Assembly: GCA_965213625.1 (NCBI GenBank)
Contig: CBDBZU010000004.1
Location: forward strand, 2,208,001 to 2,272,000
Direction: 5' to 3'
DNA: 64,000 nucleotides
Source: a bacterium
Lineage (GTDB): Bacteria > UBA8248
Part shown: positions 3,372 to 5,853 of the stretch, one piece after another
Layout of the letters: each line of letters opens with the position of its first letter
How positions within the stretch are numbered: position 1 is the stretch's first letter
Position numbers and translations under genes: made by a program
Notes under the pieces: generated by a model
What the model was told of the DNA's origin: nothing
The model's database searches: none
The model's input: the letters and a program-made list of their open reading frames with translations, nothing else

Positions 3372-3752
3372 ATGACTATCTACAGATTCGAAGATTTGCA
3401 GGACGTGCGTCAGAACCCCGGCCTCTCCTCAGGCCACGGGGAGACCATCAAGGGGGAGAAGATGTATTTCTGCCACCGCATCTGGGAGGCGGGCACGGAA
3501 GCGAAGCCCCACTACCACGCATGCGAGCAGTTCATCTACATCATGCGCGGAAGGCAGAAGTTCACGATGGGCGGGGAGGTGCACGAACTGGGACCCGGTG
3601 ACGTCATCCACATACCCGCGAACGAGGTGCACGCGGCGGAGATGATCGAGGAGGTCGAAGCCATCTACGTCAAGGACACAACCTGGAGCCTCAAAGGAGT
3701 CGCCGCTGGTGAAGCGGCGCCCGACGCCCCGCCGCCCGATGATCCGTTTTAG
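3372..3752 (+). CDS. Cupin_2 domain protein
   Basis: AGGAG RBS; PHYHACEQFIYIMRG...GPGDVIHIPANEVH cupin motifs. Confidence 0.9.
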   Translation: MTIYRFEDLQDVRQNPGLSSGHGETIKGEKMYFCHRIWEAGTEAKPHYHACEQFIYIMRGRQKFTMGGEVHELGPGDVIHIPANEVHAAEMIEEVEAIYVKDTTWSLKGVAAGEAAPDAPPPDDPF

Positions 3753-3769
3753 GTTTAGCCACCCGCATT

Positions 3770-3794
3770 GTAGGGGTCGTATATATGCGACCCT
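3770..3794. repeat. GTAG-type REP-like palindrome
   Basis: GTAGGGGTCGTATATATGCGACCCT; hairpin GGGTCGTA/TGCGACCC. Confidence 0.55.
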
Positions 3795-3960
3795 CATAGA
3801 GAAGAGAAGGCCACGGGCATCGCAATCCTTCCTCCAGTGTCGCAGCGCGTTCTTATGAAATCGGCGAATGTCAGACAGCGGGCCGATGGGGTGGACGCCC
3901 CCTTCCGGCAGTTTAGAATGTGGCGAGGCAACGTCACACACCGCCCGGAAGGAGGCATCC

Positions 3961-4986
3961 ATGGAAGGAGTCTACATCATCGGCATCGACTTGGCGAAAA
4001 ACAGTTTTCAACTCCACGGGGCGCGCGCGGACGGTTCGGTAGCGTTCCGCAAGAAGCTCGGTCGGGCGGGTCTGCTGAACTTCCTGGCCAAACAGCCGCG
4101 CTGCGTGGTGGCGATGGAGGCGTGCGCGGGGGCGCACCGCTGGGGCCGTGAGATTGCGAAGCTCGGCCACGAGGTTCGGCTCGCGCCGCCGGCCTACGTG
4201 AAGCCGTACGTGAAGCGCCACAAGAACGACGCGGCGGACGCGGAGGCGATTTGCGAGGCGGCCTCACGACCGACGATGCATCTCGTGGCGGTGAAGAGCG
4301 AGGAGCAGCAGACCGAGGGGATGCTGTTCCGGGCGCGGGATTTGCTGAAGCGCCAGAAGACGCAGACGATCAACGCGTTGCGGGGACACCTGGCGGAGTT
4401 CGGGGTGGTCGCGCGGCAGGGTCCGGTGGGCCTCACGCGTCTGGCGGCGGCGGTTCGGGGAGCGGAATCGGGTCTGCCGGTGGCGGTTCGGGAGTTGGGC
4501 GAGGTGTTTCTGGAGCAAATCGCGGGTCTGAGCCGGAAGATCGGGGAGTTGGAGAGTCGGCTTCACGCGAGCGTCCACGCGGACGAGGAGGCGCGGCGTC
4601 TGATGCGTATCCCGGGGGTGGGTCCGGTTACGGCGTCTGCGATCCGTGCCTTCGCGCCGCCGATGGAGAACTTCCGGCGGGGCCGGGACTTCTCGGCCTG
4701 GCTGGGACTGGTGCCCCGGCAACACTCGACGGGGGGCAAGCCCCGCCTGGGCCGGGTATCGAAGATGGGCCAGCGCGACGTGAGGCGGCTGTTGGTCACG
4801 GGCGCGATGTCGGTGATTCGCCAGGCGCTCCGGCGCGGCGCGCCGCCGGGTTCGTGGCTGGCCCGGATGCTGGCGCGCAAGCCGAGGATGCTCGTCGCGG
4901 TGGCGCTGGCCAACAAAATGGCGCGCATCGCGTGGGCGCTGATGCGGAACAAGGACGACTACAGGGAACCGGCGCCCCTCGCCTGA
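3961..4986 (+). CDS. IS110-family DEDD recombinase/transposase
   Basis: GGAGG RBS; IGIDLAK, MEAC, KNDAADA (DEDD); IPGVG; PRQHSTGG (catalytic Ser loop); AVALANK. Confidence 0.97.
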   Translation: MEGVYIIGIDLAKNSFQLHGARADGSVAFRKKLGRAGLLNFLAKQPRCVVAMEACAGAHRWGREIAKLGHEVRLAPPAYVKPYVKRHKNDAADAEAICEAASRPTMHLVAVKSEEQQTEGMLFRARDLLKRQKTQTINALRGHLAEFGVVARQGPVGLTRLAAAVRGAESGLPVAVRELGEVFLEQIAGLSRKIGELESRLHASVHADEEARRLMRIPGVGPVTASAIRAFAPPMENFRRGRDFSAWLGLVPRQHSTGGKPRLGRVSKMGQRDVRRLLVTGAMSVIRQALRRGAPPGSWLARMLARKPRMLVAVALANKMARIAWALMRNKDDYREPAPLA

Positions 4987-5039
4987 GCGGCGGGCGCGCG
5001 GATAGAGCCGGGAGGAATGTGGGCAGGCCACAGGAGGAG

Positions 5040-5230
5040 TAAGGGCAAACGGTCATCGAGACGGGGTCGGGGCAACCAGTTACATGCGACGAGCGAACCA
5101 TCGAGCTCGCCGGGCCGATTCGGACCCGACCCGCGCATCTCCATACGGGCCCGCGGCCGTTACGAAGCGCCGCAACGAAGAGGCCGAATGTACGACTGAG
5201 TCGAACCGCTTTGCGCCGAACCCTCCCAAA
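5040..5230 (+). ncRNA. Putative bridge/seek RNA of the IS1111-type element (ends approximate)
   Basis: Stem GGGTCGGG (5064-71)/CCCGACCC (5125-32) encloses an internal loop whose two strands match the target flanks; a downstream part matches the circle junction. Confidence 0.8.
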
Positions 5231-5237
5231 AAACCGC

Positions 5238-5265
5238 TTGCATTCCAGGGGGGCGTCCATGTACG
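5238..5265 (+). promoter_or_regulatory. -35 half of the IS circle-junction promoter (TTGCAT-18-TACGAT after circularisation)
   Basis: TTGCAT at 5238-43. Joining right end ...GTA-CG to left end AT... yields TACGAT 18 bp downstream. Confidence 0.7.
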
Positions 5266-5272
5266 CATGTAT

Positions 5273-5416
5273 GTCAGACATATATGTCTGACCCTACACG
5301 AACATCGTGGTTTTACGGTGGCGGGCCCAGCCTGTAACCACGTCAGACATCACCAGGGAGAAGAAAGGGTAGGGACAGGTCGCGACCTCGGACAGGCACA
5401 AGGGCCTTGTCCCTAC
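5273..5416. repeat. Cluster of GTAGGG/CCCTAC REP-like palindromes
   Basis: Perfect 20-bp palindrome GTCAGACATATATGTCTGAC (5273-92) followed by CCTAC; GTAGGGACA (5369-77)/TGTCCCTAC (5408-16) IR with internal AGGTCGCGACCT. Confidence 0.65.
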
Positions 5417-5436
5417 AGCCGACATCATCCGATTAC

Positions 5437-5853
5437 CTACACCGTCCCGTAGAGTTCCTCCGCCTTGGCGTCGAGATGCTTGATGATGTCCGCCAGATCG
5501 TCGGGGTAGTGGTGGTCCGCCCCCAGGTCGGGGTCTTCGGCGGGTGATTTCGCCACGAACATCACCGCCTTTTCGGTCAGCGTTCTCCCGCCGTGGAGCG
5601 TCCCTCTGGGAATGTGAAGTATGTCGCCGGGGCCGATGATTCGCTCCTCATCGCCGAGTCTCATGTATCGCTTGCCCTCGATGATGTAGACGTATTGTTC
5701 CTCGTTGTTATGCCAATGAGGTTTGGAGCCCGTGCCCCTGCGGTAGGTGACCATCCCCGCCTTCATGAACTCCCCGGCCAGGGGCTTGTACTCGCCCGGG
5801 TTTCCCGTGCTGAGCTGTACGTTCTCGATGGTGTCGGTGCTGTAAAATGGCAT
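5437..5853 (-). CDS. Cupin_2 domain protein
   Basis: KPHWHNNEEQYVYIIEG...GPGDILHIPRGTLH. Confidence 0.9.
   Translation of the reverse strand: MPFYSTDTIENVQLSTGNPGEYKPLAGEFMKAGMVTYRRGTGSKPHWHNNEEQYVYIIEGKRYMRLGDEERIIGPGDILHIPRGTLHGGRTLTEKAVMFVAKSPAEDPDLGADHHYPDDLADIIKHLDAKAEELYGTV

Follow-up and report, generated by a model that had tools for sequence, protein, structure and literature searches.

A 64,000-nt stretch of bacterial DNA (the window; GenBank assembly GCA_965213625.1, contig CBDBZU010000004.1, positions 2,208,001 to 2,272,000) carries at positions 3884-5265 an insertion sequence (IS) of the IS1111 subgroup of the IS110 family. At a probability of roughly 90%, this element is intact, lies in a repetitive extragenic palindrome (REP)-like sequence, and encodes a 341-aa DEDD recombinase that is most likely guided by an RNA from the 277-nt non-coding region 3′ of its gene, two loop strands of which give a 13-bp address. 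That address can be read directly, as the predicted guide loop spells out the REP insertion site of the element itself. Since every sequence-level feature looked for was found, the element is a further member of the kind published in 2024, with the mechanism as published. According to this mechanism, RNA transcribed from the 277-nt region would guide the recombinase: TACATGCG (5081-5088) would pair with the top strand of core plus right flank, CGGGCCG (5111-5117) would pair with the bottom strand of left flank plus core, and both would overlap on the CG where strands exchange to make up the 13-bp address. In addition, ATGTACG (5188-5194) and CTCCAT (5139-5144) may read the donor, i.e., the circle junction. 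By analogy with the family, this RNA would be transcribed and taken up by the recombinase, excision would yield a circle, and altered loop strands would redirect insertion. The terms "intact" and "reprogrammable" are likewise to be understood as what the sequence suggests.

The predicted guide loop and the insertion site

The element extends from CG to CG and comprises 1380 bp plus one shared CG, the dinucleotide being present at both junctions (3884-3885 and 5264-5265; all features described are on the + strand). The left target half CGGGC and the left core occupy 3879-3885, and the right core and the right target half CATGTATG occupy 5264-5273, as established by direct reading, by five of five genomic copies and by empty sites. 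The first strand of the putative guide loop (T strand), TACATGCG at 5081-5088, is the reverse complement of core plus right flank (CGCATGTA, top strand, 5264-5271). The second (B strand, 5111-5119) consists of CGGGCCG (5111-5117), which repeats left flank plus core as read at 3879-3885, followed by AT (5118-5119), with which the left end also begins. The T strand is located 5′ of the B strand, and the two overlap on the CG core at the insertion point. Both this IS1111-type order and the location of the RNA downstream of the gene had been proposed in an earlier sequence-only reading of the window, and both hold; its guide and flank coordinates are all correct. With the AT included, the 3′ loop strand copies nine bases of the integrated left junction. 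Such a copy would fit a role in excision, a proposal that stays conjectural because the AT and the left-end bases are both conserved.

The probability that these matches arise by chance is low. When the double match (8-nt complement plus 7-nt identity, sharing the central dinucleotide) is accepted anywhere in the 277-nt region, opposite loop strands not being required, it is reached by 148 of 500,000 random genomic 13-mers, and it arises in 5 of 20,000 dinucleotide shuffles of the region.

The genome of origin (4.15 Mb in 4 contigs) harbors three copies of 1382 bp that are 100% identical, and two identical copies of 1037 bp, distributed over five places. Each of them is bounded by [C/A]GGGC-CG and CG-CATGTATG, in fixed position and orientation, which is the predicted site. 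The joined target GGGCCGCATGTATG is found uninterrupted at nine further sites. At six of these the sequence goes on as the palindrome GGGCCGCATGTATGCGGCCCCTACA, which marks the target as a REP-like repeat. For the window element, the joined target reads CGGGCCGCATGTA, with CGGGC-CG-CATGTA as the core address, and the insertion site is a REP-like palindrome of the GGGC-CG-CATGTATGCGGCCC type. In a congeneric genome (G004), the orthologous intergenic site is uninterrupted and reads ...GTGGGCCGCATGTATGCGGCCCCTACAC, which fixes the boundaries of the element and shows that a single CG was present before insertion. The empty target that had been deduced by removing the element in silico is therefore real, and the CG core and the target of about 13 bp are borne out by the copies and by the empty sites.

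The copies also bear on whether the element is an immobile relic with a gene or RNA that is silent in its host. A point in favor of this possibility is that the gene has lost 345 bp in two of the five copies; the deletion is in frame, removes residues 97-211 and leaves a 226-aa product, with the ends and the guide region intact (G000:C4:592776-593812 on the + strand and 2342100-2343136 on the - strand). On the other hand, the identical full copies at distinct sites imply recent movement, and the occurrence of two identical deletion copies at two further sites implies that this movement included the deletion form, for which the recombinase was presumably supplied in trans. Given, moreover, that the open reading frame of the window element is full length against the family model, a relic is improbable.

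Covariation of guides, flanks and scaffold

A scan of one genome per species yielded 80 loci, most of them from Alphaproteobacteria, with recombinases that are 57-80% identical. Together with elements A and F they make 82 elements, of which 66 had enough flank and 45 of these passed a filter for the inverted repeat and the junction geometry (left: core, 6 nt, TGGA[CT]; right: TCCA, 4 nt, core). Two were dropped, L026 for the lack of a TGGA motif and L083 for its short flank, and the remaining 43 rows represent 39 distinct guide pairs. From the structure alignment, L047 and L076 were excluded as misaligned or aberrant, leaving 37. A loose regular-expression parsing of the loop strands misplaced many anchors, and a MAFFT alignment was used in its place. 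Among the 21 loci rejected by the filter is a subclade with a TGTGACCGCCCC-type repeat, which is not counted here; inspected by eye, it shows a T strand GTGCAACA beside TG-TTGCAC.

The 3′ regions of the relatives align well, with a conserved scaffold (GGCAAACGGTC...GGGATCGGGAAAACCAG / TTGGACCCGATCC / CTCCATACGGGCCCGCGGC...GCCGC...GAGGCC) in which two short hypervariable stretches flank a small hairpin. Across the 39 guide pairs, the longest exact match of the T strand averages 5.82 with its own flank versus 3.20 with the flanks of other elements, and that of the B strand averages 5.90 with its own flank and core versus 3.00. A combined T+B match reaches 12 or more for 23 of the 39 elements against their own flanks, compared to 7 of the 1482 cross pairs, and several high-scoring cross pairs involve elements whose guides are nearly identical. 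The summed guide-flank score is 457, compared to a permuted mean of 247.5 (sd 9.8), and none of 10,000 permutations reaches it. Furthermore, the core present in the B strand equals the left core of the DNA in 36 of 39 elements; the core itself differs across the clade (TG in 20, CG in 15, AG in 2, CA in 1 and AA in 1).

It could be argued that the recombinase protein itself recognizes the REP hairpin and the subterminal repeats, and that complementarity of the RNA is a by-product or has only a regulatory meaning. This would agree with the older view of how IS1111 elements target REP and attC structures, and the binding of the ends is a question that the account of Siddiquee et al. leaves open (PMC11187229). 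Against it stand the covariation of guides and flanks among elements with recombinases that are 57-80% identical and the finding, described in the same account, that the seekRNA is both essential and programmable in four IS1111 members (PMC11187229); recognition by protein alone is accordingly very unlikely.

Retargeting can also be followed on a shorter scale, among 30 loci of congeners (5 of them unparsable), where guide changes of one or two bases track the REP variants. The window element combines T TACATGCG and B CGGGCCG with the site CGGGC-CG...CG-CATGTA. An element of G008 that is 88% alike combines T TATATGCG and B GGGTCG with GGGT-CG...CG-CATATATG; the G002 element has B CGGGACG at CGGGA-CG; and the G011 element has T ATATATGTCC and B AGGTCG at AGGT-CG...CG-GACATATATG. 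One G011 copy (L120) matches its own T strand in only 4 nt. Sister elements are present in the genome of origin as well. Copy F (L006, G000:C4:927589-928965), 76% identical, has other loop strands, which predict the site GTAAG-CG-TTCGGTCC. In a second F-like element (L009/L010, G000:C4:4129761-4132490) the B strand GTATGCG stands beside the flank ATGTATG-CG; this element is split by an insertion of 1345 bp, which codes for a transposase of the Mutator family (IS256-like; PF00872, 1.2e-66).

Simple repeat homology, in which the non-coding region would have captured a REP fragment without any RNA function, is hardly credible: although the target, a REP-like palindrome, recurs many times in the genome, and palindromes make complement and identity matches easier by chance, the matching segments are split by a conserved hairpin within a scaffold common to 39 relatives, the flanks of these relatives are mostly a sequence other than this REP yet match their own loop strands, both matches have a chance of about 3 in 10,000, and one-base guide changes follow the REP variants in congeners.

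The scaffold of the guide RNA is supported by covariation as well. The predicted long RNA, of about 159 nt (5050-5208), would be closed by P1 (helix 1; 5050-5053/5205-5208 and 5056-5059/5201-5204), with compensatory changes in 5 of 7 pairs. Within it, a target-binding domain (5064-5132) is formed by an outer stem (helix 2; GGGTCGGG 5064-5071 / CCCGACCC 5125-5132; 94.9% of cells paired), an inner helix that closes the internal loop (helix 3; C5076-G5123, C5077-G5122 and G5079-C5121; 94.6%) and an inner hairpin (helix 4; CGAGC 5090-5094 / GCTCG 5105-5109; 83.8%). A second hairpin (5148-5185) comprises GGCC at 5148-5151/5182-5185 (helix 5, invariant and 100% paired) and GCGGC 5153-5157 / GCCGC 5169-5173 (helix 6, 98.9% paired). 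Among the 37 aligned relatives, this six-helix structure of 31 pairs has 91.3% of its cells paired, versus 24.4-45.6% with slid partners, and 17 pairs have changed on both sides. None of 500 shuffles reaches any of five measures obtained with RNAalifold and by counting pairs. The anatomy of the target loop, first proposed from the single sequence, is thus upheld by covarying helices and by the covariation of guides and flanks in the 39 relatives and the congeners; aligning the homologues had been named as a check, and in that alignment the loop strands do covary with their own flanks and the scaffold helices covary too. The outer stem and the inner hairpin are both recovered in the minimum free energy (MFE) and centroid folds of the single sequence, and in the MFE fold parts of the loop strands also pair locally.

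Two further segments of the RNA resemble the donor. A putative donor guide, ATGTACG(A) at 5188-5195, repeats the final 5 nt of the right end together with the core (and the first left-end base). Its first seven positions (5188-5194) have a counterpart identical 7/7 to right end plus core in 33 of 39 relatives, among 16 distinct sequences, and none of 10,000 permutations does as well. The candidate for the other donor strand, CTCCAT (5139-5144), is the complement, with one G-U pair, of the left extension ATGGGG and is suggestive only: pairing of this type with the left end is found in 24 of 39 relatives if G-U is allowed, and 12 of 10,000 permutations reach the observed score. In the six-helix structure, the putative donor strands lie on either side of a hairpin and do not make up a plain internal loop.

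Even odds may be given to a model in which 5133-5208 reads the donor and is the counterpart of that portion of the long seekRNA for which Siddiquee et al. left the function open. ATGTACG and CTCCAT would then lie unpaired, as the joints of a three-way junction that P1 closes, the natural cores would be CG, TG, AG and CA, and the deletion copies would show that RNA and ends can be moved in trans. If so, the clade carries a complete two-substrate bridge RNA in a format unlike the two internal loops of IS621. One relative, L015 (OZ244799.1), has a tandemly duplicated right end, in which about 70 bp from a donor-guide-like ATATACG to the true end occur twice; it looks as if the DNA for the donor guide had served there as a pseudo-end.

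Several observations weigh against guidance by this RNA or limit the support for it. The fold of 5040-5265 is not more stable than that of shuffled sequences (z = +1.30, with 181 of 200 shuffles folding as well or better), so stability provides no argument and covariation is relied on instead. A search of window positions 3500-5700 against Rfam 15, which covers curated models only, gave no match at E values up to 1. Among the copies in the genome of origin, copy C matches the B strand at only 6 of 7 positions. Copy F sits in GGGTATC-CG-TTCATC and thus matches its own guides only partially (T 5, B 3 exact). In the relatives, T+B is below 12 in 16 of 39, which could reflect crude boundary parsing, decayed flanks or off-target insertions, and because the relatives are kin, the permutation figures overstate their independence. 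On the donor side, the complement to the left end is weak, with Watson-Crick pairs at all six positions in only 8 of 39.

Expression is a further point on which the evidence is slight. Six sequencing runs are on record as RNA, each accounting for a small share (0.05-0.12) of the sampled words, and four of them were examined. Their contigs, 90-99% alike, cover 4948-5273 (X18 and X20), 4901-5234 (X22) and 5004-5155 (X23), and carry 5083 C>T, the T-strand variant of G008. The same contigs also cover parts of the gene and may stem from DNA. Strand, ends and level are unreadable from contigs, gaps in cover (4408-4879 in all four) are uninformative, and the tables for X18 and X20 are identical and may represent one data set filed twice. 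At most, these contigs provide a weak hint of expression.

The recombinase and known IS110 systems

The transposase gene (3961-4986) encodes 341 aa and is preceded by AGGAGG 5 nt upstream. Its product matches the Pfam domains DEDD_Tnp_IS110 (PF01548, 2.3e-12) and Transposase_20 (PF02371, 5.5e-23), as well as the NCBIfam model NF033542, "IS110 family RNA-guided transposase", with 316.5 bits (cutoff 140) over its full length (1-341 of 343). The alignment of homologues starts at residue 1. By eye, from the translation and an alignment to the ISCro4 transposase, D10, E53, D90 and D93 are present, and G249-L-x-P252-x4-T257-G258 constitutes a GLxPxxxxTG motif. Matches in the PDB are restricted to the ISCro4 and IS621 transposases, and they are weak and limited to the C-terminal 120 residues. 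The IS1111 features are found throughout: a protein of 341 aa, 11-bp subterminal repeats, terminal extensions of 6 nt (left) and 4 nt (right), and a long 3′ non-coding region. Together with the Pfam and NCBIfam matches, these repeats support the IS110/IS1111 assignment made earlier.

Siddiquee et al. described in 2024 how, in four IS1111 members, the transposase co-purifies with an essential RNA that stems from the non-coding region 3′ of the gene (PMC11187229). In the same description, this seekRNA carries the match to the top strand 5′ of the match to the bottom strand, the two overlapping in the target; it has a short form of 70-100 nt and a long form of 145-170 nt; and it is reprogrammable if the donor flanks are changed too (PMC11187229). 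IS1111 recombinases are given there as 330-350 aa, with a G--P----S(t)G motif and a long downstream non-coding region, and circle-junction promoters are described for the group (PMC11187229). According to Durrant et al. (2024), bridge RNAs are predicted in the right end of 93.0% of IS1111s, and subterminal repeats measure 7-17 bp (PMC11208160).

When set beside the descriptions of ISEc11, ISPa11, ISKpn4 and ISPst6, the window element is alike in its recombinase of about 340 aa, its subterminal repeats, its long 3′ non-coding region and its strand order, and the short and long seekRNA forms compare with the 5064-5132 domain and with the RNA of about 159 nt at 5050-5208 (PMC11187229). ISPa11 is also described as targeting a REP (PMC11187229). 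The window element differs from these four, as far as their descriptions go, in its target CGGGC-CG-CATGTA and its host group, and its RNA is a predicted one (PMC11187229).

IS621, as described with its structures (PMC11208160; 8wt6 etc.), likewise has a DEDD recombinase, together with a bispecific RNA that recognizes both strands of target and donor around a core dinucleotide. In the window element, the RNA lies 3′ of the gene, whereas that of IS621 lies 5′, and the order of the strand matches is reversed (PMC11187229). The predicted structure places the donor strands in single-stranded joints that flank a hairpin inside P1, as opposed to the second internal loop of IS621, a distinction drawn from that prediction. 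The IS621 recombinase is a distant relative, its phmmer match (E = 2.3e-08) being confined to the C-terminal 120 residues. The core of IS621 is CT; that of the window element is CG.

The IS110-family elements ISPpu9 and ISPpu10 of Pseudomonas putida, as described, resemble the window element in residing in REP and in having modular or defective derivatives in the same genome (PMC12288879). The small RNA Ssr9, downstream of ISPpu9, is reported not to be required for transposition, whereas the downstream RNA of the window element carries target-matching strands, a comparison that rests on the description of ISPpu9 (PMC12288879).

The window element offers a clean natural example of the seekRNA or bridge RNA code, with a readable address, a CG core, and empty and filled sites in one genome, accompanied by congeners in which changes at one or two guide bases have shifted the target from one REP variant to another. 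The alignment of 39 elements, with its conserved scaffold, hypervariable guides and agreement of guides and DNA at CG, TG, AG and CA cores, could be used, as a small natural collection, to work out design rules for recombinases of the IS1111 type. It would also help genome annotation, in which 3′ regions of this kind are left unannotated.

Ends, promoters and repeats

The non-coding sequence of the element is unevenly distributed, with 277 nt 3′ of the gene (4987-5263, the putative source of the guide RNA) versus 75 nt 5′ of it. From the left core, the terminal extension ATGGGG (3886-3891) leads to the left subterminal inverted repeat TGGACGCCCCC (3892-3902), in the geometry of core, 6 nt and TGGA[CT] common to the parsed relatives. 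This repeat pairs over 11 bp with the right subterminal inverted repeat GGGGGCGTCCA (5249-5259), which is followed by the right terminal extension TGTA (5260-5263). A promoter-like sequence, TGGACG-16 nt-TAGAAT (3892-3919), precedes the transposase gene; it is a consensus match only, one site being found versus a shuffle mean of 0.1. At the other end, TTGCAT (5238-5243) may provide the -35 box of a promoter completed only at the circle junction, where it would be followed by 18 nt and TA-CG-AT. The resulting TTGCAT-18 nt-TACGAT agrees with the consensus at 7 of 12 positions, and in the alignment CTTGCA of this region is kept in nearly all relatives. Upstream of the transposase gene, its reading frame continues without a stop across the left end into the flanking DNA (window 3868-3960), where an ATG at 3868 lies beyond the element. 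This would allow read-through from outside, probably of no consequence.

Several REP families, including GTAGGGGTCGCATATATGCGACCC, GTCAGACATATATGTCTGAC and GGGCCGCATGTATGCGGCCC (window 3760-3800 and 5272-5300), are abundant in the genome and the genus, with dozens of 26-30-nt matches per genome, and different sister elements target different variants. Copies B, D and E share an identical left flank of 46 bp (G000:C4:592730-592775, 1823692-1823737 and 2343137-2343182), made up of a REP, a 17-nt spacer and CGGGC and found at only these three places in the genome. Sequence further to the left bears no resemblance to the target, and the orthologous intergenic regions of five congeners are too divergent for a comparison with an empty site. 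A subfamily of bacterial interspersed mosaic elements (BIME), gene conversion or co-mobilization are possible origins of the shared flank. The spacers at the nine empty sites, unlike this flank, all differ from one another.

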